Assembly (NCBI GenBank): GCA_964561855.1
Contig: CAZLQP010000005.1
Location: 1,153 to 65,152, forward strand
DNA: 64,000 bases
Direction of reading: 5' to 3'
DNA from: an uncultured Burkholderiales bacterium
GTDB taxonomy: Bacteria > Actinomycetota > Acidimicrobiia > IMCC26256 > JAGPDB01
The notes beneath the pieces were generated by a model. The model worked only from the letters and a program-made list of their open reading frames with translations, was not told the origin of the DNA and ran no database searches. Positions 35,751 through 59,631 of this stretch are shown here, one piece after another (the first letter of the stretch is position 1; the number at the start of each line of letters is the position of its first letter). A program made the position numbers and the translations under genes.

Positions 35751-35996
35751 TTATGCTTCGTTTGCGTATTCTTGTTCTAATAGCTCAACTTTAGGCATTG
35801 AGTGTTCAATAAAGTTAGAGATATCTTGCTTTAAAAAGCGGTAACCTCGAACTCCAGGAATCTGCATTGCTGGAAGTCGGCCATCTTTCGCCATGAGCTG
35901 AATCATGCGAGGGCTTAACCTCAACCATGCTGCCACCTCTGAAGGCTTCAAGATCGCTGGATAATCATCTGGATCGAAGGGTGTTTGTGCTGCCAT
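35751..35996 (-). CDS. HTH_17 / BldC-like (MerR/Xis-type) DNA-binding protein
   Basis: LKPSEVAAWLRLSPRMIQLMAKDGRLPAMQIPGVRGYRF resembles BldC-type winged HTH; divergent from the Tad operon. Confidence 0.85.
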   Translation of the reverse strand: MAAQTPFDPDDYPAILKPSEVAAWLRLSPRMIQLMAKDGRLPAMQIPGVRGYRFLKQDISNFIEHSMPKVELLEQEYANEA

Positions 35997-36383
35997 GTCC
36001 GTATCCTACCATTTCTATGTTAAATTGTAAACCTTGCGAATCGAACGAATATTTTGTAATATCATATTGTGAAATGCTATTACTAGGTACTACGTCCAAT
36101 TCTTAGAAGTTTTCGGCACGTAGATCGCCAACTTGAGCATTTCTCGAAAAAAATATCAAAAATCATGGATGACAAGCCCAAATCCCATGGAAAAGCCCAA
36201 AATTAGTCCGAGATTAGAAAATTAATCACTTTATATTAGTTATAAATAAGACGAATAAAGCCTAGCTGTAGCGTCTTTAACAAGATGTTTCGGCCGACAC
36301 AACAATCGTATTCGTAACGATCATCTCCAAGGAGGGCGATGCCACGTTAGATGCCTATTTGTAAAACAAATAAGGAGCCCCAG

Positions 36384-37124
36384 GTGACAGATCCAACATA
36401 CGCCATAGCAAACTCTCAAGCACCCGTACCAAAAAGAAATGTTGGTTCAAGAATTACTTTTGGTCACTTGATGATTGTGGTCAGTGGTTTACTTGCGTTT
36501 TTGTTAACCATTACAGTCATCAATCAATTTAGAGGAGATCAAACTGAAGTCTTGGTAGCGAGAGACAACATAGTTGCTGGTGAAAGTTTAGAGATATCAA
36601 AATTTGAAGTAAGACAAATTCCATCAAACGTATTGAACGATGAATTCGCAACTCGAGAAATGATTCAAAATGGCAATAACTTTGCCGCTCGTTCAATTCT
36701 TGAAGGTGAACCTTTGACTAGAGCTGCAATGACACCAGATGTTGAAGACGCTAATGTTTGGCTTCAATCGATTCCGATTTCAAGATCTTTAGCAGTCAAT
36801 GGAAGCATTTCACGAGGCGACCGAGTTGACATTATTGCAACCCCTGATGGCACTTGTGCATATCGTGCATTGAGAAACATTGAAGTTGTTTCAGCTCCTA
36901 CAACTTCATCAGGTGGAGTACTTTCGTCAAACACTAGAGAATTTACAATTACGGTATCTCTTGAGCAAGCCGGTGATGATCTTATCTTGGCTGGAGTAAT
37001 TGCAACTGGTCAATTCCAAATAGTTAAATCTACTGGTGATCGAGACCGAGGTGTTGTGATCGAAGATCCACAATGTGGTAATCCGCCAACTGCTTCTAAC
37101 TCTGCTGGATCTGGTGGTGCATAA
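36384..37124 (+). CDS. cpaB: Flp pilus assembly protein CpaB/RcpC (SAF domain)
   Basis: N-terminal TM, EVLVARDNIVAGE, AARSILEGEPL, GSISRGDRVDII; SD AAGGAG before GTG 36384 (alternative ATG 36351). Confidence 0.85.
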   Translation: MTDPTYAIANSQAPVPKRNVGSRITFGHLMIVVSGLLAFLLTITVINQFRGDQTEVLVARDNIVAGESLEISKFEVRQIPSNVLNDEFATREMIQNGNNFAARSILEGEPLTRAAMTPDVEDANVWLQSIPISRSLAVNGSISRGDRVDIIATPDGTCAYRALRNIEVVSAPTTSSGGVLSSNTREFTITVSLEQAGDDLILAGVIATGQFQIVKSTGDRDRGVVIEDPQCGNPPTASNSAGSGGA

Positions 37125-38975
37125 ATGACAATAACGATCGGTATCGTAGCTAGCTCTCGCGAGTGGAGAAGTATTTTACAAGCACATGTACGTGACCATG
37201 TTGCAGATGTAAAGGTACAAATACTTCGTGAACCTCGCATGGCTTTAGAGCTAGAGCTCGATGTTGTTGTAATTGATGATGTTTCAAGTTTCTTAACACG
37301 AGATAAAGTTGTTCGCCTTCGCGAAAAAGGTACACGTGTAGTTGGAATATACGATCCCGAAGGTCAAGAAGGCTTAGGAATTACGTTCTTAGAGAATCTT
37401 GGGGTTGATCTATCACTGCCTTCAAACATTTCACCTGAAGAGATGATCAGTGCAGTTTCTCAACTTCAACCTAGAGAAAACTACTCCAACGTTTTCGACC
37501 ATGCTGTTGCGGACTTCTCTTCAACTCAAACTCCTACTGTGGAGCCTGGTAATTCTGCAATTATTACGGTTGCGGGTCCAGCAGGTACTGGATCTACTGA
37601 AATTGCTATTGCATTAGCGGATCTTTTGGTTGCAAGACGCACTGCAACATTATTGATTGATTGCGATGAAGTAGGTCCTAGCGTTGCTCGAAGAATTGGT
37701 TTTCATTTACACCCGAATATTTTGACTGCTATGGATGCAGTAGCAAATGTTACAAAACCATTAACAGAAATGGTTGGAAGACCCAGCGACAGAGTTGCAA
37801 ATTCCGTTAACTTTGATGTGATTCCTGGAATTGCTAATCCAGAAGATTGGTCACAGTTACGTTCTAGCGACATTGCTGATTTATTTACCGCTGCAAGAAA
37901 GTCTTGGAGATATATTGTATGTAATACCGGTCCATTTACTGAAGACCTATCGGGTTATGGAATGGAAAGATTTGGTGGTACTCGAGCTGCACTTGAATAT
38001 GCAGATGTAATTATAGGAGTGATGTCACCAACGACAACAGGTTATATGAGATTCTTAGACTGGCTTTCTTCGCTGAGAAGTTTAGGCCATGATCGAGCTG
38101 TATATGTTGTGGTTAATCGAGCTCCAAAGTCTGGCTATATTCGAAAAGAAATCGAATCGCAACTTACTAGAGATGTTGATTCTCGCTACATTGCAGGATT
38201 GTTTTTTGTAGCTGAAGATGAAAAAGTAACAAAAGCAGAATGGGAAGGTCAGCTCGTATCTAGAGGACCTTTTCTCAACACAGTTGCTGAAGTCGCTACT
38301 TTTGCAATACCAGCTAGGTATGTGAAGAAAAATTCAAAAGGCGCCCAAGGGGTTGTGCAAACTTCTGCTGGAACAGCATTTTCAGGAGCACCTATTGCTG
38401 CTCCCAATCAGATGCCTTCACAAGCACAAGGTATATCTTGGGATGATCCTGATATTGCAGGAGCTCCTCAAGTTCCAATGCCTCCGCAAGCTCCAGCTCA
38501 AAGTGTGATGGAACCTCAACCATTAGCTTCAGAAGTTAGTCCATACATTACAGAGCAACCTCAGAATTTAAACATTGATTCGATAGATCAAATTGATGAA
38601 ATTGAGAATTCGATCGCGCATAGCATGCAACAGTCTGACTACGAAACTCAAGCGCAACAACCAACTCCTCAAGATAACTCGTATTCATTTTCTCCACCTA
38701 TTCATTCAGTCGAACATGTTACACCTAGCCCGGCACAGGTTCCGCAATCTCCAGCAGATCCAACAAGCCAGTCTTATGTACCAGCATATAAACGAGATTC
38801 CCAAGAACAAATTCCTGATGCAAATGAACAGTTTGTGAATGCTCAACCGCCAGAACCAACAAATCAAGGTTACGTCAACCAAGAAAATGTTGCTCAACAA
38901 GGGAAGGGTTACGTGCCTGGATATGTTGAAGAAGATAAGGAAGAAAATCCTGACGACAAGTTTTGGGGTAACTAA
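37125..38975 (+). CDS. tadZ: CpaE/TadZ-like pilus localisation protein with long Gln/Pro-rich tail
   Basis: Receiver-like N-terminus, MinD-like domain (TVAGPAGTGSTE, LLIDCD); between cpaB and tadA. Confidence 0.7.
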   Translation: MTITIGIVASSREWRSILQAHVRDHVADVKVQILREPRMALELELDVVVIDDVSSFLTRDKVVRLREKGTRVVGIYDPEGQEGLGITFLENLGVDLSLPSNISPEEMISAVSQLQPRENYSNVFDHAVADFSSTQTPTVEPGNSAIITVAGPAGTGSTEIAIALADLLVARRTATLLIDCDEVGPSVARRIGFHLHPNILTAMDAVANVTKPLTEMVGRPSDRVANSVNFDVIPGIANPEDWSQLRSSDIADLFTAARKSWRYIVCNTGPFTEDLSGYGMERFGGTRAALEYADVIIGVMSPTTTGYMRFLDWLSSLRSLGHDRAVYVVVNRAPKSGYIRKEIESQLTRDVDSRYIAGLFFVAEDEKVTKAEWEGQLVSRGPFLNTVAEVATFAIPARYVKKNSKGAQGVVQTSAGTAFSGAPIAAPNQMPSQAQGISWDDPDIAGAPQVPMPPQAPAQSVMEPQPLASEVSPYITEQPQNLNIDSIDQIDEIENSIAHSMQQSDYETQAQQPTPQDNSYSFSPPIHSVEHVTPSPAQVPQSPADPTSQSYVPAYKRDSQEQIPDANEQFVNAQPPEPTNQGYVNQENVAQQGKGYVPGYVEEDKEENPDDKFWGN

Positions 38976-40297
38976 TGGCAAAGGAACGCTCGGTAACAGC
39001 ATATGAACATATAAGGTTAAAACTTCTAGATCGAATTAAAGAAGGAAAAATAGATCCTGAAAGCGATCCTGAAGGTGTTAGGGGTTTAATTAAGTCTGAA
39101 GTTGCAGCGTATCAACGACAAAGTCAAAGCGGAATTGGCGGAAGAACTTTAGCAAATCCAACTGATGTTGCAGAACGACTTGAACGAGCAATTCTTGGTT
39201 TTGGTGTACTTGGTCCGTTGTTAGAAGACGATAGTGTCGAGGAAATTTTTGTTTCAGGTGGAGATGTTTCTTATGTAGATGCAAACGGTCGTTTGGCTTC
39301 GGTTGAAGATCCTACAACTGAAGATGAATTATTTCACTTGATAAATAGATTGTTACAAACCTCAGGCCGTGAAGTATCAAGACGTAGTCCAATTGTTCAG
39401 GCTCGAGTTCTAGATGGCGCTGCGCGTTTAGGTGTTGTTGTTCCCCCAATTGCAGATGAGTTAAGCGTCACACTGAGAAAATATACAATGCGTCATGAAG
39501 ATTTAAATGATCTTGTGCGTTTTGATTCTCTTTCTCCTGCAGCTGCCGCCTTGTTGCATGCTGCGATGTTAACTCGAACAGGAATTGTTGTTAGTGGTAT
39601 TCCTGCTGCTGGTAAAACTACTTTGGTAAATGCTTTATTAAGAGCGGTTCCACCTTCGCACCGAATTTTAGGTTGTGAAGAAACTCGCGAACTTTCTGCT
39701 CCTGTGATGCACGGTGCTTATTATCAAACTCGCGCATCAAGTAATGATTCATCATCAGATTCTGAAGTTTCGTTACGAGATTTGGTGAGAATTTGTTTAG
39801 GTATGCGACCTGATTTATTAGTCGTAGGTGAAGTTCGAGGTGAAGAAGCTTTTGAACTTACACGTGCAGGTAATGCAGGTTGTGGAGTTTTGTGTACTGT
39901 TCACTCGAATAATGCAAGTGATGCACTTCAAGCACTGACGTCTACTGCAATTATGGCGGGACAAAATGTTCCAGAAAAACAAGTTCGCTCGATTTTTTCA
40001 AATGTATTTGATCTAGTGATTCATTGTGACCGAGAAGATGTGCAGTTTAAAACTGAAGAATCAGGAAAGATCAAACGTCAGATCATGGAAATTGCAGCTG
40101 TCCCTTCTATTCAAGGAGGCGATAGCGATTATACGATTGAGCCAATCTTTGTTCGTGAAGGTTTCGGGCAACCTCTTAGATGGACCGGTGCTCCTTTGCC
40201 CGAGAACTTACGTAAGAGGTTAGACAACGTTCTATCACGTCATGGTACAAGCGTTCAAAGGATATTGGAAGGTTCGAACCAAAGGATGACAGCATGA
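38975..40297 (+). CDS. tadA: Tad pilus assembly ATPase CpaF/TadA
   Basis: LGPLLEDDSVEEIFVSG, GIPAAGKTT Walker A, GCEETREL, MRPDLLVVGEVRGEEA, CTVHSN. Confidence 0.95.
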   Translation: MAKERSVTAYEHIRLKLLDRIKEGKIDPESDPEGVRGLIKSEVAAYQRQSQSGIGGRTLANPTDVAERLERAILGFGVLGPLLEDDSVEEIFVSGGDVSYVDANGRLASVEDPTTEDELFHLINRLLQTSGREVSRRSPIVQARVLDGAARLGVVVPPIADELSVTLRKYTMRHEDLNDLVRFDSLSPAAAALLHAAMLTRTGIVVSGIPAAGKTTLVNALLRAVPPSHRILGCEETRELSAPVMHGAYYQTRASSNDSSSDSEVSLRDLVRICLGMRPDLLVVGEVRGEEAFELTRAGNAGCGVLCTVHSNNASDALQALTSTAIMAGQNVPEKQVRSIFSNVFDLVIHCDREDVQFKTEESGKIKRQIMEIAAVPSIQGGDSDYTIEPIFVREGFGQPLRWTGAPLPENLRKRLDNVLSRHGTSVQRILEGSNQRMTA

Positions 40298-41253
40298 ATG
40301 TTTTAGCTGCACTCTTTGTTGCAATCTTCGTTTTTCTTTTAGGTGCACAAATTACAGGTAATATGCCTGAAAGATTTAACCGAGTGCAAGAACGGAAAAA
40401 ACGCCATACTAAAAGAGAACAAAGACAAAGCTGGTTGAATCAAAGCGGTGCTGGAGTTACTCCTTTGCAGTTCTGGGGTATTTCAATCGGAACTGGACTA
40501 GCTAGTTTTCTACTCGTTTTTGCTTTAACGCAAGTGTTTATTATTTCGGCTGTTCCCTCTATCATGTTGGGACTTTTACCCAGAACGTATTTTGCTCGCA
40601 AGCGAATAAAAGGACGAGAAGAACGAGTGCAGGCTTGGCCAGATGCACTAAGAACTCTAATTGCAGGGATCTCTTCAAGTCAGTCATTGCATCAGTCCCT
40701 ACGTTCGCTTGGAACAGGCGGACCTGTACCATTAAGACCTGTCTTTCAAAAATATGCACGACTAACACAAGCGTTAGATCAGCGAAGTGCGTTAGAAGTT
40801 ATCAAAGAAGATTTAGCCGATCCAATGAGTGATCGCATTATCGAAATTTTGATTGCAGCAACTGAAGCAGGTCCTGGTGTTGTTTTAGATATCTTACGAG
40901 ACTTAGCTGATTCAACAACAAGAGATTTACAATTAAGAGAACATATTGAAACTATGCAGACTGAACAAAAGCTAAATGCTCGAATTGTTTTTGTTATGCC
41001 TTATCTGTTGCTGATAATGATGGTTATGGCATCTGAAGAGATTAAAGATTTTTACCGCACTCCGGCAGGAGTTTTCATTATAGTCTTAGGTACTTTGATT
41101 TTGTCGGCAGGTATGTTGTTTATTCAAAAACTTGGTGTAATCCCGATGGAGCAAAGAGTTTTTGCACAATCAGTAACTGATGATAAGGAAAGAAAGATCA
41201 TTGAACAGTCGAATCGTAAACAAGGCGATTCGCCTTTGGAGCAATTCTCATGA
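40294..41253 (+). CDS. tadB: Tad platform protein TadB (T2SSF family)
   Basis: TM, WPDALRTLIAGISSSQSLHQSL, second TM pair; overlaps tadA stop. Confidence 0.88.
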   Translation: MNVLAALFVAIFVFLLGAQITGNMPERFNRVQERKKRHTKREQRQSWLNQSGAGVTPLQFWGISIGTGLASFLLVFALTQVFIISAVPSIMLGLLPRTYFARKRIKGREERVQAWPDALRTLIAGISSSQSLHQSLRSLGTGGPVPLRPVFQKYARLTQALDQRSALEVIKEDLADPMSDRIIEILIAATEAGPGVVLDILRDLADSTTRDLQLREHIETMQTEQKLNARIVFVMPYLLLIMMVMASEEIKDFYRTPAGVFIIVLGTLILSAGMLFIQKLGVIPMEQRVFAQSVTDDKERKIIEQSNRKQGDSPLEQFS

Positions 41254-42188
41254 GTTCTATGATTTTCTTTATTGGCTTGTTGATGGCATTTTGTGTCGGT
41301 TCAATTGCTGCACTCTTTTTCAAACCTCCAAGAAAACTTTCTTCTAGAGTCGCGCCATATACTCAATTGAATCGTTCAAGGCTAGGAAAAGGTGCAGATC
41401 TAACTGCAATCGGTTCGCTAGATAGCGCTGCTCCTCAGACTGCATTTGGAAGGATTTTTGGGCCTATCGGACAGTCGTTGGCAGATTTCTTGGGCCAAAT
41501 TATTGATGCAGGAGATGATGCATTCTTAGCTTTGCGTCTTCGTCAGGCTGGATTTTTAGATACTTCTCCTTCACAGTATCGAATGCGTCAACTTTCGTAT
41601 ACGCTTGGAGGAGCAGGTGCATGTACAGCATTGGGCTTGTTTGCTGGTAGCACATCTTTAACACTGCTTGGCTTTTTTGGTGGTGGACTTTGGGGTGCGA
41701 CTGCATGGCGAGGAAAAGTAAACAAAGCTATTAAATCTCGTCGCGAGCGAATGCGAATCGAACTATATACAGTTTCGCAATTGATCGCGATGCAAATGCG
41801 GACAGGTCAAGGATCTGTTGCTGCAGTGCAAGAAGTTACTCGTCGAGGAAGAGGACCTGTTGTTAGAGAATTGGCTGAAGCACTCAACTGGATGAGCTCA
41901 GGTATGGAACAATCTGAAGCGTACGAAAGACTCGGAGTTGAAACTCCCGAACCTGCAGCTGCAAGGTTGTATCGCGCTTTGGCTGATGGTGTTCGAAGTG
42001 GTGGAGACTTAGCGTCAACGCTGTTGACAATTTCAGATGATCTTCGTAGTGAAAGACGAGAAGAATTAGAGCGCAATGCAACAAAAAGACGAGGTGCGAT
42101 GTTGATACCAACAATTGTTATTATGTCTCCAGTAGTTCTTCTTTTCTTGATAGCACCAATACCTAGACTTCTCGCAGGGGGTGGCTAA
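41250..42188 (+). CDS. tadC: Tad platform protein TadC (T2SSF family)
   Basis: LRLRQAG, ELYTVSQLIAMQMRTG, SDDLRSERREE...MLIPTIV. Confidence 0.88.
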   Translation: MSSMIFFIGLLMAFCVGSIAALFFKPPRKLSSRVAPYTQLNRSRLGKGADLTAIGSLDSAAPQTAFGRIFGPIGQSLADFLGQIIDAGDDAFLALRLRQAGFLDTSPSQYRMRQLSYTLGGAGACTALGLFAGSTSLTLLGFFGGGLWGATAWRGKVNKAIKSRRERMRIELYTVSQLIAMQMRTGQGSVAAVQEVTRRGRGPVVRELAEALNWMSSGMEQSEAYERLGVETPEPAAARLYRALADGVRSGGDLASTLLTISDDLRSERREELERNATKRRGAMLIPTIVIMSPVVLLFLIAPIPRLLAGGG

Positions 42189-42294
42189 AAGTGTTTTTTA
42201 AGCCCCGAAATATAACGCTTGTAAGATTTTCTGATGCCAATCAACGAATGATGAATAATTATGCGAATAATGCGAAAAGCTACAAAAATAATTC

Positions 42295-42323
42295 TTGTCA
42301 AGAGCTAGAATATGTCCGACAAT
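42295..42323 (+). promoter_or_regulatory. putative sigma70-type promoter of the flp pilin gene
   Basis: TTGTCA - 17 nt - GACAAT, 45 nt upstream of the flp ATG. Confidence 0.45.
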
Positions 42324-42367
42324 ATAGAAAACCAGCTAGTTGCCCAGGTTGGTTATAAGGAGCCCCA

Positions 42368-42598
42368 ATGTTAAAGCTATATGTTGATTGTTTAACTTAC
42401 ATCAATTCAGCTAAGAGTTCTTTTAAACGTAGAGCTGATGAAGAAGGCTTCGTTAGTGCTGAAACTATTGCGATTGCTGTTGCGGGTGTTGTGATTGTTG
42501 GTTTGTTGTTTGGGATTTTTAGGGATCAACTAACAGGATTTGCAGATGGAATAATGGAACGCATCGGCGGTTTTGAAGATACTGAACCAACTCCGTAG
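42368..42598 (+). CDS. flp: Flp major pilin
   Basis: Leader ending RRADEEG, then FVSAET plus hydrophobic helix; predicted mature pilin 49 aa; strong SD AAGGAG. Confidence 0.85.
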   Translation: MLKLYVDCLTYINSAKSSFKRRADEEGFVSAETIAIAVAGVVIVGLLFGIFRDQLTGFADGIMERIGGFEDTEPTP

Positions 42599-42631
42599 TG
42601 GTTTTAATTTGATTCTTAATTGAGGTGTGAC

Positions 42632-43159
42632 GTGAAATTTCGCTTAGCTAAAAGAGCGAAAGATACGAATCAGCTCGGCTTTGTATCCGCTCAGTTTTTA
42701 GGCCTAATTGCTATCACTTTGTTTTTCTTATCAGGTGTAGTTCAAATTTTATTCATTGAGTATTCTCGTCAAGCAGCTATTACTGCAGCAAATGAAGCAG
42801 CACGCGCAGGATCTCAGAGTATTGACTTTCGACGAGCATTTGAAGCTCTTGAATCTACCGATCAAAGTGTGCGTGATGAAGCAGCAATTCAAATTGCTAA
42901 TGCAGAACAAGTTTGTGTTGAGCGGCTTACTTCTGCTGCAGATGACTTATTAGGCGTAAGTGCAGAAATTGAAGAGGATGGTATTTCTTGTGAAGTTCTA
43001 TCCAATAACGAAGTCGATCCTGCAAACGCTACGAGATTCTATATGCAAGCAAATTACTCTGCGACTGCGAGTGCGTTCATTCCATGGGCAAAACCTTTTG
43101 CAGACAATCGCCTAAAGAATCTCAGTGCAGTATATGAACAGCGTCAGGCGGCAGAATGA
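42632..43159 (+). CDS. tadE: TadE-like pseudopilin
   Basis: QLG/FVSAQF plus hydrophobic helix, AAITAANEAARAGS, two Cys. Confidence 0.75.
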   Translation: MKFRLAKRAKDTNQLGFVSAQFLGLIAITLFFLSGVVQILFIEYSRQAAITAANEAARAGSQSIDFRRAFEALESTDQSVRDEAAIQIANAEQVCVERLTSAADDLLGVSAEIEEDGISCEVLSNNEVDPANATRFYMQANYSATASAFIPWAKPFADNRLKNLSAVYEQRQAAE

Positions 43160-43653
43160 TTATTCAATGGCCACGTCGCGACGAAATTTCTGCAGATGAA
43201 AGCGGTTTTATGTCTGCTGAATGGTTGGCAGCTTTTGGTGTTTTGGTTATTCCAGTTTTTATTTTGGTTGTATCTTTAATCCAAGTACCGCCGAGGGTTT
43301 CTGCGGGTAACAATGCCGCTTCGCAAGCAGCGCTAGCTTACGTTGGAGCACTTGATCAAAGTCAGGCAATCGATCAGGCCGAAGAAGCTGCAGAAGATGC
43401 AATTACTTCGAGAAACTTAGGGATATCTGCATCCGAAATAAGAGTTGAAGTCGTTGAATCAAATGGATATTGTCCGGGCAGAGAAGTAACAATAGAAGTA
43501 ACAATCCCAATACCGGTTTCGATCAATCCATTTGGTGATTCTGCTTTGTTTGAGTTCGGCTCGCTTAGCTCTCGTTCAACTGAACGAATAGATGATTATG
43601 CAGAACTTGCTAATGTTGGCGACATGGCTAGTGGGTTATGTGATACGCCATGA
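43156..43653 (+). CDS. tadE: TadE/TadF-like pseudopilin
   Basis: DESG/FMSAEW plus hydrophobic helix, AASQAALAY, CPGREVTIEV, ERIDDY. Confidence 0.8.
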   Translation: MIIQWPRRDEISADESGFMSAEWLAAFGVLVIPVFILVVSLIQVPPRVSAGNNAASQAALAYVGALDQSQAIDQAEEAAEDAITSRNLGISASEIRVEVVESNGYCPGREVTIEVTIPIPVSINPFGDSALFEFGSLSSRSTERIDDYAELANVGDMASGLCDTP

Positions 43654-44120
43654 ATATGAAGTTGAAGGATTCGGGTTTTGCATCTTCTTGGATGCTCGGT
43701 TTTGTCGCAATCATTTTGTTTATGGGGGTTTTCTTTTTCGAACTTGGGTCAATATATATCGAACGACAAAAGCTAGTTGATACAGCAGATCGCGCAGCTG
43801 CAGCCGGAGCAACCGCCATTGACGAAGATCAGTTGATTGCGACAGGAAACATTGTCCTTGATGCCGATGAAGCAAATATTCGTTGTACACAATCTCTTAA
43901 TAGCTCCATTGAAGATGCTTTTTCAGATGGCGGCTCCGAATTAATTATTGAACCAGGAGTTTGTGCTGCCGAACCTGGGGTGATGGTTGTAAACGCAAAA
44001 GCAGAGTTAGAGTTTGGCCCAGTTTTTAGGATTCTTGGCTTTCCAAATCGAACCTTTGAGATCCAAGCACAAGCTCGGCCTAGCTGTAGTGATGACCAGT
44101 CTTTGTCTGCAGATTGTTAA
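43650..44120 (+). CDS. tadG: TadG-like (Tad/TadE-G) pilin-associated protein
   Basis: DSG/FASSW plus TM, ERQKLVDTADRAAAAGA typical of the Tad domain. Confidence 0.82.
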   Translation: MNMKLKDSGFASSWMLGFVAIILFMGVFFFELGSIYIERQKLVDTADRAAAAGATAIDEDQLIATGNIVLDADEANIRCTQSLNSSIEDAFSDGGSELIIEPGVCAAEPGVMVVNAKAELEFGPVFRILGFPNRTFEIQAQARPSCSDDQSLSADC

Positions 44121-52322: not shown

Positions 52323-52381
52323 AACGAAATTCTTAAATGACCAAAAGCGGCTGACACAGAAACATGAACAAAGGGTGATAT

Positions 52382-53830
52382 ATGGCACAAGGTTATAAAC
52401 TTGGTGGCGCTGAGCCAAAGAAACTATTCATGGGATTCAGAACATCTCAAGTAGTTATTTTAGCTATTGGCGTGATGTTAGGTTTTATTGCTGTTGCTGC
52501 AAATCAACTTCTTTTAGTTTTAGTTATATTCGGTTTTGCAGTCGCAATTGCTTTTTTGCCTTTTGGCGGGAGAAATTTAGATGAGTGGATCCCAATTTTT
52601 GCGCGTTGGACAATAACAGGATCCAAAGGAAGACAACATCATAGCGTTGCTCCGCTTTTAGGTCACACAGATAAAAAAAGTCAGATGATTGGGCCTCCAC
52701 CTTTTCTTAAAGGCGTGAAACTTTTAAAGGTTGTCAACTCTGATAATCGCGAGATTGCTGTGATTAAAGATGCACAAGCAGGAACATATTCTGGCGTGCT
52801 ACAAATAAGTGGTGGTTCTTTTGTGCTTTCGTCTTCTGCTGACCAAGAAGTTCAACTAGCAAATTGGGGATCAGTTTTAGCAAGATTTTCTAGAGAAGGT
52901 TCACTAATAAATAGAGTGCAATGGATAGAGCGAGCAATACCTGAAAACTCTCAAGCAATGCACGAGTATTTTGATGGTGCAGCAGCACTTGGCGAAGATA
53001 ATCTTGCAACTCAATCTTATCTAGAGCTTATTGATTCAGCAGCACCGATTACAACATCACACGAAGTCTTTTTGGTTATACAAATTTCTCAACTTAAATG
53101 TGCAAAACAAATAAAGCAAGCCGGCGGTGGAGATGATGGCGCATGTGAGGTTCTAATCAGAGAGCTAACGCATGCTGCAAATCAAGTAGCGAGTGCTGGC
53201 TTTAATGTATTGAAAGTTTTAAATCGAGATGATGCGGTAAGACTCATTCGCACATCTTTTGAACCAGATGTAAACGAGGAACTAGTAAAGAAACAGGCAC
53301 AAGGTTATTCAATGAATGAAATCTGGCCTGTAACTACAGAAACCGAATGGGATCTATTTCACTCTGATGGATCTTTTCATAGAACATTTTGGATTTCTGA
53401 TTTTCCTCGAACAGAAGTGGGTGCAGACTTTCTATCAAACTTGATGCTGCAGAGTCAGATCACCCGGACGGTCAGCGTTGTGATGGAACCGCTCTCACCC
53501 ACTAAAGCCTTGCACGAAGTAGAAGTAGCGCGCACCTCTTTCTTAGCGGATCAAGATATCCGAGACAAAGCAGGTTATGTTACAAACGCTACTCGTCAAC
53601 GAGAGTTTGAAAAACTCCAACAACGAGAACAAGAACTCGCAGATGGACACGGTGCATATCGATTCTCTGCTTACTTAACATGTTCAGCGCCAGATGAAGA
53701 ATCTCTAGAGTATGCCTCACAAGCATTAGAACAAGCAGCACACCAATCGCACCTAGTATTGCGAACATTATATGGTGAACAAGACAATGCATTTGCTACA
53801 CGCTTGCCTTTCGGAAGAGGTCTGGTATGA
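52382..53830 (+). CDS. SCO6880-family protein (PrgI/VirB3-like N-terminus)
   Basis: LFMGFRTSQV plus two TM, LPFGGRNLDEW, WGSVLA, VQWIER, HRTFWISDFPR, QQREQELADGH, GEQDNAFATRLPFGRG. Confidence 0.85.
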   Translation: MAQGYKLGGAEPKKLFMGFRTSQVVILAIGVMLGFIAVAANQLLLVLVIFGFAVAIAFLPFGGRNLDEWIPIFARWTITGSKGRQHHSVAPLLGHTDKKSQMIGPPPFLKGVKLLKVVNSDNREIAVIKDAQAGTYSGVLQISGGSFVLSSSADQEVQLANWGSVLARFSREGSLINRVQWIERAIPENSQAMHEYFDGAAALGEDNLATQSYLELIDSAAPITTSHEVFLVIQISQLKCAKQIKQAGGGDDGACEVLIRELTHAANQVASAGFNVLKVLNRDDAVRLIRTSFEPDVNEELVKKQAQGYSMNEIWPVTTETEWDLFHSDGSFHRTFWISDFPRTEVGADFLSNLMLQSQITRTVSVVMEPLSPTKALHEVEVARTSFLADQDIRDKAGYVTNATRQREFEKLQQREQELADGHGAYRFSAYLTCSAPDEESLEYASQALEQAAHQSHLVLRTLYGEQDNAFATRLPFGRGLV

Positions 53831-55113
53831 GCGCTGTTCCTGATGTAAAGCTCAAGTGGATTGATCCAACTGCTGTATTTGTTCCACCACATCGTGCAAC
53901 CACAGCACACCTTCAAGCTGTGTTTCCTTTAATGTACTCTCCAGGCTTAGGTTCGCGAGGAACATACATTGGCCGCGAGCTAATGGGCGGATCGTTTTGT
54001 TATGACCCTTGGGAACTTTATGCGCAAGGTTTATTGACCAACCCAAACATGTTAATTATCGGACAAGTTGGTCGTGGTAAGTCTTCACTTGTAAAGAGTT
54101 TATTGGTTCGACAACAAGTTTTTGGTCGACGTGCAGCAGTATTGGATCCAAAAGGTGAATATGAAGGACTAGCAAAGGTTTTAGGAGCTCCTGTTGTAAA
54201 AATTGCACCTGGAGGAAATGTTCGAATCAATCCTCTAGATCCGGGACTTAGCATTGGTTTGGTTGAACATGATGAAATCTTTCGACGACAAACCACTTTG
54301 CTTCAAGCCTTAGCTGCATCTTCTTTGAATCGAGAATTATCACCAGAAGAACGAACTGCCTGTGATTTAGCGTTAGCGGACTTTCACGAATTCAATCACG
54401 GCAAAGTTCCAACAATTCCAGACATAGTCGAGTGGTTATTACATCCTCGAGAAGAAGCGGCATTAACTGTAGGTGCTACTGCAGATCAAATCGCTCATGG
54501 AGTGAGAGAGGTTGCTCTTGAACTTCGTCGAATGTGTCACGGTGATTTAAAAGGTATGTTCGATGGTCATACAAATATCACAGTTGATTGGGATGGACCA
54601 TTGGTTGTAATTGACCTATCTGCAGTGTTCTCTTCTTCTGCATTAGGGTTGTTGATGACATGTGCAACTGCTTGGATGCAAAGTGCAATCGTTAGACCTA
54701 ATGCTGGTCGACGATTCATAGTTGTAGATGAGGCTTGGGCTGTTTTAAGTAACGTCGGTGTAGCTCGATGGTTACAGCAGTCTTACAAACTTTCTCGTGC
54801 ATATGGTATCTCTAACGTTGCAGTTATGCACCGTGTTAGCGACCTTCAAGCTTCAGGTGCAGTAGGTTCCGAAGCTTATGCGCTTGCAAGAGGTTTGTTA
54901 TCTGATACAGAAACTAGAGTGATATATGGACAACCGCACTCTGAAGTTGAAATGGCACAAGAACTTTTAGGTTTGTCAGAGTCAGAAGCAGGATTACTTC
55001 CTCAACTAGGTAGAGGACAAGCGCTATGGAAGGTCGGCTTGAGATCATTTTTGATCGAACATATATTAGGAGAGACCGAACTAGCAATAGTTGACACAGA
55101 CGCAAGAATGTAA
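53827..55113 (+). CDS. virB4: VirB4-like T4SS ATPase
   Basis: HRATTAHL, GQVGRGKSS Walker A, VLDPKGEY, RRFIVVDEAW Walker B, KLSRAYG; overlaps the SCO6880 stop. Confidence 0.9.
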   Translation: MSAVPDVKLKWIDPTAVFVPPHRATTAHLQAVFPLMYSPGLGSRGTYIGRELMGGSFCYDPWELYAQGLLTNPNMLIIGQVGRGKSSLVKSLLVRQQVFGRRAAVLDPKGEYEGLAKVLGAPVVKIAPGGNVRINPLDPGLSIGLVEHDEIFRRQTTLLQALAASSLNRELSPEERTACDLALADFHEFNHGKVPTIPDIVEWLLHPREEAALTVGATADQIAHGVREVALELRRMCHGDLKGMFDGHTNITVDWDGPLVVIDLSAVFSSSALGLLMTCATAWMQSAIVRPNAGRRFIVVDEAWAVLSNVGVARWLQQSYKLSRAYGISNVAVMHRVSDLQASGAVGSEAYALARGLLSDTETRVIYGQPHSEVEMAQELLGLSESEAGLLPQLGRGQALWKVGLRSFLIEHILGETELAIVDTDARM

Positions 55114-55148
55114 ACAGCCCTGGGGGTCTGATCCCCCAAAAGGAAACG

Positions 55149-57854
55149 ATGAATCAAACGCCAGCAGGGACAACAAGGAACTTGGGACTCACCCCCATGG
55201 AGTCCATAATTTTTGCTGTCGTAGTTATCTTTTTAGGGCTTGGAGTTTTACTTTTCGTTGCCGGTGAACTCTCTGGTGTGATCTTTAATCAAGATCGACC
55301 TGCTGCATCTGCTGCAAACATTCCATCAATTGCTGCAGGCGTTGTTAGTAACCTCGGCGATCCTGCACAAGCGTGGCCTGAAGAATCTCGAGATGCTGTT
55401 CCGGGTCCTATTCCTTATTATTTCACTTTGCTTTTCATTATTGTAGGTTTAGTAATTGGCGCTAAATATGCTCATGGTTTTTGGACGGGTACATTTGGAA
55501 ACAAAGATCTCAACAATGCACAATGGGCAAAAGCTCGGGACTTAAAACCTTTAATTGTGCAACAAGCTGGAATTCGTGGACGACTTGTTCTTGGTCGAAG
55601 TAGCGGAAAGCTAATTGCGACTGAACCTCGAATGAGTGTCATCGTTTTGGGTCCTACACAGACTGGTAAAACAACTGGTTTTGCTGTTCCTGCAATTTTG
55701 GAATGGGACGGACCAGTAATTGCTGCTTCGGTGAAGAACGACCTTGTTAAAGACACGTTCAAATGGCGCAAAACACAAGGTGATGTTTGGCTATTTGACC
55801 CAACACGTTCTACAGGTTTTGATTACGAAGAAGTGCGTGCAGGTTGGTCGCCATTGTCTCAAGCAATTGAATGGGGCGGAGCGAGAAAAGTTGCTTCTTG
55901 GTTGTGTAAAGCCAATAAAGCTGCAGGTAATAATTTAAGTGATGGTGACTTTTGGTTTTCAGCTGCTGAAAAATTAATGTCTCCTTATCTTTTTGCTGCT
56001 GCTGTTGGCGGAAAAGATATGTCAACAATTCTTCGTTGGATTGACACGCAAGAAGAACGTGAAGTTTTGTCTATCTTGCAACGCGCAGGTGTTGGTGAAG
56101 CAATGACTGCTTTTGAAGCAAATATGAAACGTGATGAACGAACAAAGTCATCTATCTTTACAACTGCCGAAACAATTATCGATGCTTATAACGATCCACT
56201 TGTTTGTGAGTCAGCAGCAAACCCCACAATTTTCTCAAGTGAATTATTAAACGGTGGAAAAAATACACTTTACATTTGTGCGCCTTCGCATGAGCAGGAA
56301 CGTTTGCAATCTATCTTTACAGCAATTGTTTCTCAGATGAAATCTGCAGCGTATGAGCTAGCCGGTAAACAAAACCGACCGATCGATCCACCGCTTCTAA
56401 TATGTATTGACGAGGCTGCAAATATTGCACCTCTTTCGGATCTAGATGCAATCGCATCTACGGCTGCTGGTATTGGTATTCAGCTAGTAACAATTTTCCA
56501 GGATATGGCACAGATCGAATCTCGCTATAAAGATCGTGCGAGAACAGTGGTAAACAACCACCGTGCAAAAGTGGTGCTGTCAGGTATTTCGGACTCAGGA
56601 ACTTTAGAATATGTTTCAAAGATTTGTGGTGAAGAAGAAGTAGAACAAACATCCACAAACATTTCTGCACAAGGTGAACGTTCTACTACTGAATCGAAGC
56701 AACAACGCACACTTGCAAGTGGCTCTTACTTACGTCGTATGAAATTTGGTGAAGGAATTGTTGTTTACGGTCAACTTGCTCCTGCGAAATTAGTTTTACG
56801 TCCTTGGTATAAGGATCGCGTATTAAAACACATGGTGGAACACGGATCAAAGCCCGGAGTTATGGGCGGTTCTTCTGGAGCCAACACATTTGCAGGTGCC
56901 GATAAAATCGTCAAAGATCCAAAGTCTCAAGAAGTTCTCTCTAGCGTTCCTCGTGATTCAACTCAGTTCTCAAATCAATCAGCTAATGAAATGAGTCCTA
57001 CGGGAAGTCCCTATGCGTCGAAACAATTAGGCTCTGTTGCAACCGATCCTTCGTTTGCTCAACAAAGCTCGCCTCAAGCTGATGGTCAACTTTCCGCATT
57101 TGATAAAGCGCTAGCTGAATTGCGAGCAAGAGATACCACAACTCCGCCGCAGCCAGAGCAACCTAGCGGTGATATATCATCTCAGCCGCCACAGTTTCCG
57201 GCAACGGCGCCAACGCCATCTCCAAGTTTTGGCGATATGCCACAGACTGGTGTTGCGCCTGCACCGAGCAGTTTTTCCGCAACTCCAACATCAGAACCAA
57301 AATATACTCCTGGTGTACCTTTAATTTCTGAAGAGCCACAAGTGTCATCTGCTAGTCCATCTAAATGGAAACCGACATCTGGGGGAGTACCTGAAGAGCC
57401 AAGCGTTCCTTCTGGTTTCGCTGCTGTTGCTAAACCTGTTACGCCATCTCCAACACCTGCAGTCGAAACTCCTTTAGCTCCAACTATACCGACAGACACA
57501 ACATCGGCAACATCTGCATCAAGTGCGACTTCGTCAAAGTGGTCAAAAGGTTCGCATCCAAAATTTAAATCAAGTGATACGACGGCTCCTCAAGTCCCGA
57601 CTCCGCCACAAGCTGCACCACCACAATCTTCGCCAACACAAGCTACTCCGCCAACAGCTCCTGTACCGCCAACTACACCTGCGCCTTCGGTACAAACTCC
57701 ACCAGTAGATGTATCAGATTTGTTTGCTCAGTATTCGTCCACAGGGGTAGTTCCATCAGCTAATGAGGATGAAGAAGAGGACAAGCCGACAAATGAGTCC
57801 GTGCTTTCTCAACCAGAATCCCAACCTCCTGCGCCAAAATCAAAATGGAAATAG
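55149..57854 (+). CDS. virD4: VirD4/TraG-like type IV coupling protein with long Pro/Ser/Thr-rich tail
   Basis: Two N-terminal TMs, VLGPTQTGKT Walker A, WLFDP, CIDEAANIAPL Walker B, IFQDMAQI, NNHRAKV. Confidence 0.92.
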   Translation: MNQTPAGTTRNLGLTPMESIIFAVVVIFLGLGVLLFVAGELSGVIFNQDRPAASAANIPSIAAGVVSNLGDPAQAWPEESRDAVPGPIPYYFTLLFIIVGLVIGAKYAHGFWTGTFGNKDLNNAQWAKARDLKPLIVQQAGIRGRLVLGRSSGKLIATEPRMSVIVLGPTQTGKTTGFAVPAILEWDGPVIAASVKNDLVKDTFKWRKTQGDVWLFDPTRSTGFDYEEVRAGWSPLSQAIEWGGARKVASWLCKANKAAGNNLSDGDFWFSAAEKLMSPYLFAAAVGGKDMSTILRWIDTQEEREVLSILQRAGVGEAMTAFEANMKRDERTKSSIFTTAETIIDAYNDPLVCESAANPTIFSSELLNGGKNTLYICAPSHEQERLQSIFTAIVSQMKSAAYELAGKQNRPIDPPLLICIDEAANIAPLSDLDAIASTAAGIGIQLVTIFQDMAQIESRYKDRARTVVNNHRAKVVLSGISDSGTLEYVSKICGEEEVEQTSTNISAQGERSTTESKQQRTLASGSYLRRMKFGEGIVVYGQLAPAKLVLRPWYKDRVLKHMVEHGSKPGVMGGSSGANTFAGADKIVKDPKSQEVLSSVPRDSTQFSNQSANEMSPTGSPYASKQLGSVATDPSFAQQSSPQADGQLSAFDKALAELRARDTTTPPQPEQPSGDISSQPPQFPATAPTPSPSFGDMPQTGVAPAPSSFSATPTSEPKYTPGVPLISEEPQVSSASPSKWKPTSGGVPEEPSVPSGFAAVAKPVTPSPTPAVETPLAPTIPTDTTSATSASSATSSKWSKGSHPKFKSSDTTAPQVPTPPQAAPPQSSPTQATPPTAPVPPTTPAPSVQTPPVDVSDLFAQYSSTGVVPSANEDEEEDKPTNESVLSQPESQPPAPKSKWK

Positions 57855-57927
57855 GGATTTTAAATCTAGAATCCAATAAACTGGAAACCTTTTTGTAGAG
57901 CAAGTAGGATCTAGAAAAGGCAAATTA

Positions 57928-58356
57928 ATGCAAAGTAGAACTATGAGTGAAGAAATTTCAGAAGAACTCGAAGAGATAGCAAATAAGCTGACTTCCAGGC
58001 GCGGAGCTCCTGAACAAGAGCAGAATAATTCAGGCTCTACTGGAGATGTCGTAAATCGCCTTGAAAAAATTGGTATTCACACTCATAAGGCAAAAGTCGC
58101 AGAAGTGGCTGACCTGTTATTTGGTGGAGACGTCCGTACTCGACCTGGTGCGCACCGAAGAATTGATGATCAACAGTTTGAAATTCTGGCTAGGGCATTT
58201 TTGCTTTACGTTAATTTTAGCTATGAATTCGAAGAAATCGCTGATTTTATTAATGGAAAATCGAGCTACGATGACGTTTTGTTCCGATTGAAAGCTGGAC
58301 TTGTTCTTATCGATGAAATTGCTGAACAAGCTGGTATTTCGCCTCAAAATAGCTAA
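57928..58356 (+). CDS. hypothetical protein directly downstream of virD4
   Basis: 142-aa ORF (possible start ATG 57943); acidic and helical; no family recognised. Confidence 0.65.
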   Translation: MQSRTMSEEISEELEEIANKLTSRRGAPEQEQNNSGSTGDVVNRLEKIGIHTHKAKVAEVADLLFGGDVRTRPGAHRRIDDQQFEILARAFLLYVNFSYEFEEIADFINGKSSYDDVLFRLKAGLVLIDEIAEQAGISPQNS

Positions 58357-58524
58357 AAATTGGCTAGATTCTATTTTTAGAGCAGATCTCTCAAAATATT
58401 GTATAAAATTGTGAATAAATACTGAATTTCGCCTTGTAATATGCCGAAAAACCAGGCAAAATAACAGTACAAATAATATTGAATTGGAAAATTCTATTTT
58501 GAAATTGAAAAGATCAGGTGTCAA

Positions 58525-59631
58525 ATGACAAGATTTGCGACTATGCCAGCGAGCCGTATCGGTGGAGCGTTCAAGCTATTTGTTCTTTTCGCTGTTCAGA
58601 TAGGTTTTGTTGTAGTTTTTCACGCGCTCGGTTCAATTGATTCGTTAGCGGTTAATTTTTCTGATCTGTCCACTTGGCTAGAAGAAACATCACCTGAAAT
58701 TGCATTAGTTGCATCTGTGCGATTGCTGGCACTTGTATTTTCATATTGGATGTTAGCTACTTCTGTGATCTACATGCTTGCAAGGTCATTCCACTTAACT
58801 GGATTAATTCGAGCTATGGAATTTACAACGATTCCAGGAGTTCGAAAAATTATCGATGCAGGTTTAGCTGCCGCAATTGTTGGTGGAACAGTTTTTGGTG
58901 GCGCTGCTGCAGTATTTGCAAAACAAGCTGATGCAGGAAAAATTGCGACTCCGGCTGCTGCTACAAGAGTTCTATACAATCCGGGAGTACAAGCTGTTGG
59001 TACTACAACAGGTTCTCCATTAGTTAATCCCAATGCAACTGCAAGTGACACCTTGATTCCTATTGTTAACTCTGAAACCAATGTCAGCGCTCCGAACAAA
59101 AAAGTAGTTCAACCTTCTCAGTCAACTGATCAGGCACAAACTACTGACAATACAGGTCCTACGAAAAATGACGATGGAAATTACATTCCTACACCAGCAG
59201 AGCGATATGTTGCACCCTCTGTCGACGAAGGAGATATTCCACAGCCAGCTCAAACCAATACATCTCCTAAAGTTGTTTTACCGACAGATGATGAGGCACC
59301 TACAACAACGTCTCCAAAAATTACGGTTCCACCTACAACTGCTCCGATCACAAGTGATCCAAATGTAGAAGTCGGCGGAAAGCAAGTTATTCGAGATGAT
59401 GCTCCAGATACCCAGCAAGAGCAACAAGAAGGTTCTTATACAGTTGTTTCAGGAGATAATTTTTGGAAGATCGCAAGACAACAAGTTCGTGATGCAAAAG
59501 GCGAAGAACCATCTAATGCTGAAATTGCGAATTACTGGGTAAGATTGATCGATGCAAATAGAGACAATATTCGTTCAGGCGATCCAGATTTGATTTTCCC
59601 GGGTGAAGTTTTTGTTCTTCCTCCTGTTTAA
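58525..59631 (+). CDS. LysM peptidoglycan-binding membrane protein
   Basis: N-terminal TMs, Pro/Thr-rich linker, C-terminal YTVVSGDNFWKIA...GDPDLIFPGEVFVLP. Confidence 0.9.
   Translation: MTRFATMPASRIGGAFKLFVLFAVQIGFVVVFHALGSIDSLAVNFSDLSTWLEETSPEIALVASVRLLALVFSYWMLATSVIYMLARSFHLTGLIRAMEFTTIPGVRKIIDAGLAAAIVGGTVFGGAAAVFAKQADAGKIATPAAATRVLYNPGVQAVGTTTGSPLVNPNATASDTLIPIVNSETNVSAPNKKVVQPSQSTDQAQTTDNTGPTKNDDGNYIPTPAERYVAPSVDEGDIPQPAQTNTSPKVVLPTDDEAPTTTSPKITVPPTTAPITSDPNVEVGGKQVIRDDAPDTQQEQQEGSYTVVSGDNFWKIARQQVRDAKGEEPSNAEIANYWVRLIDANRDNIRSGDPDLIFPGEVFVLPPV

Follow-up and report, generated by a model that had tools for sequence, protein, structure and literature searches.

Positions 35751–59631 of a 64,000-nucleotide stretch of contig CAZLQP010000005.1 (hereafter the window) hold a Tad/Flp pilus operon followed head to tail by the genes of a type IV secretion system (T4SS) of the actinobacterial SCO6880 class, with a split VirB4 and a retained VirD4 coupling protein. 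We read this block, with moderate confidence, as one chromosomally fixed and vertically inherited unit of the Acidimicrobiia that serves its host as a contact machine. The T4SS is proposed to descend from a conjugative element that lost, or never kept, its relaxase, integrase and attachment (att) sites. As a first-pass annotation of the same DNA had claimed, the locus appears domesticated and not an integrative and conjugative element (ICE); this conclusion is well supported because the flanks are syntenic, GC content at third codon positions (GC3) matches that of the surroundings, nonsynonymous divergence (dN) is low and housekeeping-like with all open reading frames (ORFs) intact, the Tad-linked loci are monophyletic, and it is the distant homologues that bear relaxase and integrase genes. 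That the two halves act together, and in which direction and on what substrate, we infer.

Coordinates are those of the window, and the genes of the block lie on the plus strand unless stated otherwise. The Tad operon (36351–44120) opens with a gene for a CpaB/RcpC-like bitopic protein with one transmembrane (TM) segment (36351–37124; RcpC 8e-4 and SAF 3e-3, both weak), orthologues of which occupy the same position in L088–L090 (L-numbers denote homologous loci, each covering up to 21.7 kb, with 10 kb on both sides of the gene that matched). The next product is a TadZ/CpaE-like ParA-type ATPase with a 200-residue Pro/Gln-rich tail (37125–38975; weak CbiA/Ssd matches, with CbiA at 7e-4 and NCBIfam CpaE_hom_Actino at 2e-4). 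The matches of TadZ and CpaB fall under the curated cut-offs (CbiA 20, RcpC 19.8 and CpaE_hom_Actino 20.6 bits), and position and size fit both assignments. The pilus ATPase TadA/CpaF (38975–40297; T2SSE 6e-25, above the Pfam cut-off) has an intact Walker A motif, read from the sequence as GIPAAGKTT, and is 84–90% identical in relatives and 76% identical in the 67%-GC L007/L093. The platform proteins TadB (40294–41253; T2SSF 6e-7) and TadC (41250–42188; T2SSF 2.5e-14), both above the cut-off, are followed by a Flp-type major prepilin (42368–42598; Flp1_like 1e-3, below the cut-off) and by three minor pilin or pseudopilin genes, TadE1 (42620–43159), TadE2 (43156–43653) and TadG (43650–44120), the last of which matches Tad PF13400 at 4e-9, above the cut-off, as well as TIGR03816. 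Flp (…EEG/FVSAETIAIAVAGVVIVGLLFGIF, with the slash at the processing site), TadE1 and TadE2 have in common a class-III signal G/F[VM]SA[EQ] followed by a hydrophobic helix (G/FVSAE, G/FVSAQ and G/FMSAE, respectively), and TadG carries the variant signal G/FASS. Because Flp and the three pilin-like proteins bear such signals, a prepilin peptidase is needed. The first-pass annotation had seen no such enzyme in the window, and this holds, with no match to a prepilin peptidase (TadV/CpaA, Peptidase_A24) in Pfam or NCBIfam searches of the window ORFs of at least 100 residues. In some actinobacteria tadV sits apart from the tad locus, as in Bifidobacterium breve.

The T4SS portion (44295–59631) starts with a bitopic membrane protein comprised of an NTF2-like ectodomain and a helical bundle (44295–45272; AlphaFold2 model, pLDDT 82), which sits between the Tad and T4SS genes in L084, L093 and L095 as well. 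Among the 50 Foldseek matches listed for this model, NTF2-like folds (SgcJ, the CaMKII hub and an NTF2-like transpeptidase) appear with a probability of 0.87–1.00 and E values of at least 1.6e-3, and a chain of the R388 T4SS inner-membrane complex stands at rank 36. The NTF2-like fold, a common one, is the fold class of VirB8 and TcpC, and the modelled protein is a better VirB8/TcpC-like candidate than the product of 49283–50029. Directly downstream lies a DUF6112 or VirB2(TrbC)-like small membrane protein with two TM segments (45330–45734; DUF6112 4e-12, TrbC 1e-4). The position of DUF6112 relative to the hydrolase varies among sublineages, and L095, from the 50%-identity lineage, has two DUF6112 genes (1533–1889 and 3237–3548) on either side of the NTF2-type gene.

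Between DUF6112 and the partner of the hydrolase is a hypervariable slot with two genes for membrane or secreted proteins (45822–46700 and 46684–47172), neither of which gave a tblastn match in any relative. In the relatives the slot holds duplicated, weakly related genes (24–26% identity, E 4e-5 to 8e-3). The slot genes of the window (45822–47172), of L001 (1163–4158, where the paralogues are 42% identical) and of L003 (2678–4161) encode membrane proteins with Cys-containing C-terminal domains. Two minus-strand genes follow, encoding a bitopic partner (47186–47920) and an NlpC/P60 cell-wall hydrolase that would supply the VirB1 function (47936–49180; NLPC_P60 5e-10). The type of hydrolase differs by lineage, being NlpC/P60 in L001 and L003 (with a weak Lipase_GDSL_2 match too), VanY in L084 and SLT_2 in L094 and L080. 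A further bitopic protein with one TM segment (49283–50029) gave no match in our own Pfam or PDB searches; its orthologues in L001, L003, L095 and L096 are labelled DUF8175 (PF26526), a label taken from precomputed Pfam matches on the relatives' homologues and not on the window protein, and it is possibly a second VirB8-like component. The 775-residue product of 49995–52322 is a polytopic candidate for the VirB6-like channel, with an N-terminal TM segment, a 280-residue ectodomain, six TM segments and a Gly/Ser-rich tail. It has no Pfam or PDB sequence match, and its candidate VirB6 assignment derives from topology and from position, since the gene invariably precedes the SCO6880-family gene (about 60 loci).

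The motor genes are better defined. The SCO6880-family protein (52382–53830; NF042935 9e-90) combines a VirB3-like double TM segment (two TM) with the N-terminal half of VirB4, its residues 259–479 aligning to the N-terminal halves of VirB4 models. The C-terminal ATPase half of VirB4 (VirB4C; 53827–55113) matches positions 413–728 of the CD1110 VirB4 model at 9e-25, has a TraG P-loop, a Walker A motif GQVGRGKS and a Walker B motif VVDEAW, and is 81–85% identical in relatives. The VirD4 type IV coupling protein (55149–57854; T4SS-DNA_transf 8e-44, TraG-D_C 4e-25) has two N-terminal TM segments, intact Walker A and B motifs and a 340-residue Pro/Ser/Thr-rich C-terminal tail. VirD4 products measure 695–964 residues in the Tad-linked clade compared with 504–550 in the relaxase- or integrase-linked homologues, the extra length being the disordered tail. 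Thus, of the T4SS labels in the first-pass annotation, those of VirB2-, NlpC/P60-, SCO6880-, VirB4- and VirD4-like genes are borne out by profile matches, and the VirB6 and VirB8 labels stand less firmly, the former on position and topology and the latter on topology and the DUF8175 matches of homologues.

The VirD4 tail contains a conserved SAFDKALAELRARD segment and repeated SKWK motifs, one of them at the extreme C terminus. The tails of VirD4 (56840–57854) and TadZ (38380–38975) are both long, Pro-rich and disordered and have short motifs in common, namely APQVP and PPQA in the window and DPFATP in the L088/L001 pair; such common Pro-rich k-mers may reflect mere composition. TadZ proteins end in FWGN or FWK.

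Two genes complete the unit. A clade-specific, cytoplasmic, all-helical protein of 142 residues (57928–58356; AlphaFold2 pLDDT 78) is always encoded after virD4 and keeps 75–89% identity within the clade, including loci whose SCO6880 protein is down to 42%. An exhaustive profile search of 1.84 billion proteins yielded nine representatives, with the distant ones being spurious repeat proteins, and no PDB, Pfam or NCBIfam match and no significant fold match was obtained. Matches to MerR-, CbpM- and RacA-like proteins had E values of at least 0.4 and are not evidence. The protein was also considered as a hidden relaxase on account of an invariant H-T-H tripeptide and rejected, as the confident model consists of helices throughout, with the tripeptide placed in a loop. 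The product of the last gene is a membrane protein in which three TM segments are joined through a Thr/Pro linker to a LysM domain at the C terminus (58525–59631; LysM 1.4e-4, NCBIfam PRK11198 9e-7). Orthologues were found in L001, L003, L005, L006, L084, L093 and L095, and those of the sister group (L045, L056 and L080) lie on the opposite strand.

Actinobacterial T4SS-type ICEs encode an integrase and a TrwC/MOBF relaxase and reside mostly at tRNA 3' ends (Ghinet et al. 2011, PMC3218068; Bordeleau et al. 2012, PMC3429521). The block shares with these ICEs and with actinobacterial plasmids the collinear order of DUF6112, (DUF8175), VirB6-like, SCO6880, VirB4C and VirD4 with a hydrolase nearby, but differs in having no integrase, relaxase or tRNA att site in the window and in its syntenic core flanks, and it adds the Tad operon, the clade-specific 142-residue protein, the LysM protein and the long VirD4 tail. 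No relaxase, recombinase or replication protein family was matched by any window ORF of at least 100 residues (Pfam, NCBIfam), and tblastn searches of the window with the TrwC relaxase of L094, the tyrosine integrase of L085 and ArdC from homologous loci were negative; the same TrwC query finds relaxases in eight other homologous loci. The 3' end of the tRNA-Ile gene (33715–33791) is not repeated among the direct repeats of 33000–61000, and the direct and inverted repeats of this interval were rejected as att sites, since they amount to short matches due to chance and Pro-rich repeats of low complexity. All relatives retrieved have the same boundaries and flanks, and variable presence with boundaries like those of an element was not seen. 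As the locus fails with respect to integrase, TrwC relaxase, att sites and variable presence, it is not classed as an actinobacterial T4SS-type ICE. The first-pass annotation's report of no relaxase, recombinase, replication gene or tRNA-end duplication is therefore confirmed within the 64 kb by profile, tblastn and repeat searches. A correction concerns the left edge, where a gene of the excisionase family, HTH_17, does lie (35751–35996, minus strand).

Nor does base composition point to a recent arrival. The GC content over the block is 0.42–0.45 as opposed to 0.38–0.40, but the rise lies wholly in first and second codon positions, i.e. in amino-acid composition. Membrane segments and disordered tails make the block rich in Ala, Gly and Pro. 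Inside and outside the block GC3 is 0.276 and 0.279, respectively; since it equals that of the flanks, the raised GC is no sign of recent acquisition and was rejected as such.

The arrangement recurs in relatives together with its surroundings. SCO6880-family homologues are 62–78% identical on metagenome contigs and 40–44% identical on metagenome-assembled genomes (MAGs) labelled Acidimicrobiia. In L001, L005 and L006 (about 70% identity) the Tad, T4SS, 142-residue and LysM genes are followed by nucS on the minus strand and by the malic enzyme gene; L003 has the same order up to nucS and other genes afterwards. On the left side, L088 and L090, which were found through TadA, read gyrB, gyrA, DUF3566, tRNA-Ile, the oxidoreductase, the gene for an unannotated 189-residue protein (unk189), HTH_17 on the minus strand and cpaB onward. 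The right flank of 142-residue gene, LysM gene, nucS and malic enzyme is also found in L095 (SCO6880 protein 50% identical) and L084 (42%, GC 0.39). Another composite, from an Acidimicrobiia MAG with a GC content of 0.667 (L093/L007; TadA 76% and SCO6880 protein 41–42% identical to the window), has the order TadA-B-C, pilins, NTF2-type, hydrolase and DUF6112, then VirB6-like, SCO6880, VirB4C, VirD4, 142-residue-like and LysM-like, followed by SURF1 with no nucS. The flanks are as the first-pass annotation gave them (gyrA/tRNA-Ile on the left, nucS/malic enzyme on the right), and both prove to be conserved across genomes with saturated synonymous divergence. Its characterization of the host as a low-GC actinobacterium fits the window, but not the full range of the system, as the 67%-GC MAG has the composite too, and a sister group with 72% GC has parts of it.

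The proportion of synonymous differences (pS) between genomes is 0.63–0.86 and hence saturated, which makes dN/dS ratios rough, so the proportion of nonsynonymous differences (pN) was compared with that of housekeeping genes instead. For TadA and VirB4C pN is 0.08–0.14, the same as for gyrA and gyrB, and dN is 0.09 for TadA, 0.12–0.15 for VirB4C and 0.12–0.19 for the 142-residue protein compared with 0.14–0.16 for gyrA/gyrB; the values of nucS for some pairs are ORF-extraction artefacts of the minus strand. Every ORF is intact in at least eight genomes, and no gene is disrupted in any. The dN/dS check that the first-pass annotation had proposed therefore yields rough ratios, but pN as low as that of gyrase and no pseudogenization. 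The motors and cytoplasmic components are conserved, and the exposed parts diverge fast (pilins 32–52%, VirB6-like protein 38–50% and NTF2-type protein 37–54% identity). Fast surface parts and a variable slot beside conserved motors are what one would expect of a working machine that is exposed.

In a neighbour-joining tree of concatenated SCO6880 and VirB4C from 63 loci, all Tad-linked loci, including the 67%-GC genome, form one clade. Its sister group consists of L045, L056 and L080 (GC 0.72), and in all three a LysM-type gene lies downstream. TadE/TadG-like genes are present in L080, and L045 has an NTF2-type gene upstream. Neighbouring genes in the sister group are of the housekeeping type, such as leuS in L045 and the gene for an FAD oxidase in L080, and the ORFs scanned there included no relaxase. 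TrwC lies within 10 kb in the distant homologues L010, L011/L094, L013, L018, L022, L023, L033 and L046, L085 of Miltoncostaea oceani has a tyrosine integrase, an HTH_17 gene and ArdC, and L096 of Salsipaludibacter albus has ParA, a Type ISP restriction enzyme and an ImmA-like regulator. These distant homologues look like ordinary conjugative elements. The simplest history would be a single capture of an ICE- or plasmid-type T4SS by the ancestor of the clade, then association with Tad and vertical descent. Of the tree comparison suggested by the first-pass annotation, the T4SS side gives monophyly of the Tad-linked loci, in a tree without support values. The records of L005 (CAZFAO010000010.1) and L006 (CAYMMG010000011.1) are titled 'uncultured Burkholderiales bacterium', yet have the same Tad-T4SS-nucS-malic enzyme arrangement with 70–85% protein identity to this Acidimicrobiia-type window; the label is probably wrong.

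Taken as one machine, the unit could work as follows. The divergently encoded HTH_17 protein would control the Tad promoter region. TadZ would position the TadA/TadB/TadC motor, which would polymerize Flp and the three minor pilins after their processing by a peptidase encoded elsewhere. The pilus might then catch a neighbouring cell and draw it close by retraction, and the NlpC/P60 hydrolase and the LysM protein would open and anchor a passage through the wall. The channel itself would be made of the split VirB4, the VirB6-like protein, the NTF2-type (VirB8-like) protein and the VirB2-like DUF6112 protein, to which VirD4, with its long disordered tail, and the 142-residue partner would recruit a cytoplasmic substrate and feed it outward. 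The 142-residue protein is perhaps an adaptor or a cargo for VirD4. The presence of the coupling protein favours export over an import-only machine of the ComB or Ced type, and a relaxase is consistently missing, which speaks against canonical conjugation. The substrate may be a protein, as effector or signalling cargo; this is the candidate we lean towards, at somewhat less than even confidence, as the relaxase is missing in every sublineage examined and the coupling protein is kept.

Several points weigh against the reading of the block as one inherited contact machine. The single line of evidence for functional coupling of Tad and T4SS is their conserved adjacency, and neither a substrate, nor an effector-immunity pair, nor a DNA-processing enzyme was identified at the locus. 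The VirB6- and VirB8-like assignments come from topology and fold class, with weak statistics (Foldseek E values of at least 1.6e-3). The tree is a neighbour-joining tree with neither support values nor a species tree beside it. All the genomes are MAGs or metagenome contigs, and function is proposed from gene content. Finally, the view extends over 64 kb here and up to 21.7 kb in any one relative, and a relaxase, an integrase or a prepilin peptidase could be encoded elsewhere.

The alternative that survives best is a DNA-exchange machine, in which DNA or nucleoprotein would be the substrate and chromosomal DNA would be transferred or imported among conspecifics independently of a relaxase, by analogy with Ups and Ced of the Sulfolobales; we regard it as possible, if somewhat unlikely. 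Pairs of a type IV pilus and a T4SS named in PMC12102498 include the thin pilus of IncI plasmid R64 as well as Ups with Ced, and work cited there provides an experimental precedent for pairing a type IV pilus with a VirB4 system that has no relaxase. As in both of these systems, a type IV-family pilus would here make the contact for VirB4-based DNA translocation, but Ups and Ced are archaeal and encoded apart, with Ced having no VirD4, and R64 is a plasmid with a relaxase. The fast-evolving slot and pilins would suit partner recognition, and nucS, which encodes a mismatch endonuclease, is conserved next to the block on its right side in four sublineages, but this adjacency is lost in L093 and may be coincidental, and no ComEC, ComEA or nuclease gene is found in the block. 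Ced and ComB operate without a coupling protein, unlike the present system with its VirD4, and we know of no DNA transfer through a T4SS that has a coupling protein but no relaxase. A specific form of this idea, which we hold to be rather doubtful, is a host-encoded mating apparatus, the bacterial counterpart of Ups/Ced, where a retractile Tad pilus would find conspecifics, a relaxase-independent, VirD4-driven T4SS would move chromosomal DNA or nucleoprotein from cell to cell, the slot would confer partner specificity and NucS would police the incoming DNA.

It is less probable that the block consists of two independent neighbours, with Tad serving adhesion or DNA uptake, the T4SS-like genes serving an envelope or cell-cycle role without transfer, and the adjacency being historical. 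The model for such a role is the six-gene operon cmdABCDEF of Streptomyces coelicolor (SCO4126–4131; five membrane proteins and one ATPase), a chromosomal paralogue of the SCO6878/6880/6881 genes whose CmdB is like VirB4 and whose cmdC and cmdD are similar to SCO6880 and SCO6881; the operon influences sporulation as well as chromosome segregation and is no substitute for plasmid transfer genes (PMC2782261). The two loci are alike in being conserved chromosomal paralogues of the same conjugation family recruited to a host function, but cmdABCDEF has no coupling protein described and no pilus genes, and its phenotype in sporulation and segregation belongs to a mycelial host. In favour of independence, Tad alone is reported to suffice for pilus-dependent transformation in Micrococcus luteus (PMC4322843), and an acyl-CoA-synthetase-type gene interrupts the cluster in L045 of the sister group. 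However, adjacency and order are kept from 39% to 67% GC, even where the flanks have changed, the bitopic NTF2-type gene always bridges Tad and T4SS, and a coupling protein, in contrast to the five membrane proteins and one ATPase of cmd, is hard to explain without a translocated substrate.

An element that is still mobile, whether as a relic or through distant mobility genes, is improbable as a whole. In its first form, a still-mobile ICE or mobilizable island would have its relaxase, integrase and att sites outside the window, or an unrecognized relaxase among the unannotated ORFs (35075–35644, 45822–47172 and 57928–58356). The retention of VirD4 with intact Walker motifs would agree with this, and relaxase profiles do miss divergent families (PMC3429521). 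However, the flanks on both sides are core genes of the origin region (dnaA to gyrA; nucS, malic enzyme and SURF1) and syntenic in relatives, so any such element would have to contain the origin region itself; furthermore, the unannotated ORFs encode membrane proteins or the 142-residue all-helical protein and not an HUH-type α/β fold, and the window gave no TrwC-like tblastn match, which together make this form very unlikely. The second form, a relic ICE that landed at tRNA-Ile beside an unrelated Tad operon and is being lost, is largely refuted, for although the T4SS is of the class of actinobacterial ICEs and plasmids, the block starts 2.6 kb past a tRNA gene with an excisionase-family HTH_17 at its left edge and its GC is slightly raised, the ORFs are intact in at least eight genomes with gyrase-low pN at saturated pS, GC3 matches that of housekeeping genes, both flanks are syntenic, the tRNA-end repeat was not found and HTH_17 is the most conserved gene of the region and not a decaying one.

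Two further systems bear comparison with the block as a vertically inherited contact machine. The T4SS of Patescibacteria (candidate phyla radiation) is found in monoderms, chromosomal and monophyletic, without a relaxase in most genomes and near dnaA in some lineages, and has been read as co-opted beyond conjugation, with type IV pili discussed as partners (PMC12102498). The present T4SS is likewise chromosomal, relaxase-less in the window, monophyletic and origin-proximal, but belongs to another phylum and another VirB4 lineage, no Tad fusion is described in Patescibacteria, and the hosts there are episymbionts, whereas nothing epibiotic is shown here. Linear plasmids of Cutibacterium acnes carry a tad locus together with VirB4, TcpC and FtsK-like transfer genes, for which the authors raise a possible functional link (PMC5696575). 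These share with the block an actinobacterial replicon on which a Tad/Flp locus adjoins conjugation-type genes; they differ in being plasmids, strain-variable and recently transferred, with an FtsK/TraB-type translocase in place of VirD4, and are not vertically fixed. Full-text literature searches (SCO6880; Acidimicrobiia with T4SS or Tad) found no published description of a composite of Tad and SCO6880-class T4SS, which is no proof of absence.

The locus is a host-co-opted, relaxase-free T4SS, made distinctive by its conserved union with Tad, a retained and extended coupling protein, clade-specific accessory proteins and proximity to the origin. Systems of this kind are well studied in diderm pathogens and have been recognized in monoderms recently, in Patescibacteria only; the sole actinobacterial case, cmdABCDEF, is without a coupling protein and mechanistically obscure. 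Here a monoderm T4SS, complete with its coupling protein and joined to a Tad pilus, is kept under purifying selection beside the origin in lineages from 39% to 67% GC. If the halves cooperate, they would provide a compact set of about 23 genes for studying how a Gram-positive T4SS reaches its target cell and what a coupling protein recognizes without a relaxase, and would bear on contact-dependent exchange or antagonism in uncultured planktonic or wastewater Acidimicrobiia. Pipelines that detect ICEs by VirB4 and the coupling protein will call these loci degenerate ICEs.

HTH_17, the left edge of the block, is divergent from the Tad operon and encodes a small DNA-binding protein of 81 residues (Pfam HTH_17 2e-8; NCBIfam 'excise' 27.6 bits, BldC family). 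With 91–97% identity in L088, L089 and L090 it is the most conserved gene of the region, and it is a candidate regulator of the Tad promoter region. In the Miltoncostaea ICE (L085) a homologue with 40% identity occupies the same relative position, being encoded on the strand opposite to the T4SS and upstream of it. The regulator was probably inherited together with the T4SS. The divergent control region between HTH_17 and cpaB spans 354 bp (35997–36350), of which the ~160 nt upstream of the HTH_17 start are far more conserved across four genomes than synonymous sites. A conserved RNA structure in this segment was considered and found unsupported (-8.6 kcal/mol; the covariation term is positive). 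Transcription from a promoter-like TTTACA-17-TAGGAT site would begin at the HTH_17 ATG, implying that the HTH_17 mRNA may be leaderless. The counts of the promoter and terminator scan are otherwise at or below the shuffled expectation and were consequently not used for defining operons. The heptamer TATTCGT occurs three times in 35997–36350 compared with 15 times in the whole window, counting both strands, and one copy lies inside the near-palindrome ATCGTATTCGTAACGAT immediately upstream of cpaB.

The window as a whole is the replication-origin region of a low-GC (about 0.39) actinobacterium. Its leftmost genes are, in order, pcnA-like, DUF6049, murJ, a Ser/Thr kinase, a sigma factor, trxB, trxA and a CwlM-like amidase, after which parB, parA, rsmG, jag, yidC and rnpA lie on the minus strand. 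These are followed by dnaA (24297–25805), then dnaN, recF, dciA and gyrB, gyrA (30658–33171), DUF3566, the tRNA-Ile(GAT) gene (33715–33791), an NAD(P)-binding oxidoreductase-like gene (33948–35003) and unk189, a cytoplasmic protein gene (35075–35644) that precedes HTH_17. The Rfam search of the window found this tRNA alone. DnaA-box clusters at 24108–24293 and 25797–25901 and a cumulative GC-skew minimum at 23–25 kb place oriC around dnaA, and the block begins 10.5–12 kb away, in keeping with the origin proximity noted in the first-pass annotation. To the right of the block are nucS (59634–60404, minus strand) and the malic enzyme gene (60459–61859), then SURF1 and a GT4 glycosyltransferase.

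Some smaller features of the surroundings may be mentioned. The oxidoreductase-like gene and unk189, between tRNA-Ile and HTH_17, are syntenic in L088 and L090 (38–45% and 54–63% identity, respectively). The longest nucS ORF has 256 residues compared with 219–223 in relatives, and the Pfam NucS_N match begins at residue 36; the true start is probably an internal Met ~37 codons downstream of the longest-ORF start. Three DnaA-box-like 9-mers, of which two are perfect (TTATCCACA), form an inverted pair at 35707–35739 in the 106-bp gap between the convergent unk189 (35075–35644) and HTH_17. The arrangement is kept in L088 and L089 and was not seen in L090, and could be a DnaA-binding site, an operator for another protein or the stem of a bidirectional terminator. 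Another five DnaA-box-like sites, including a perfect one, cluster at 8135–8470, 16 kb from dnaA, and cover the 3' part and the start region of the pcnA-like gene as well as the gap to the next gene.

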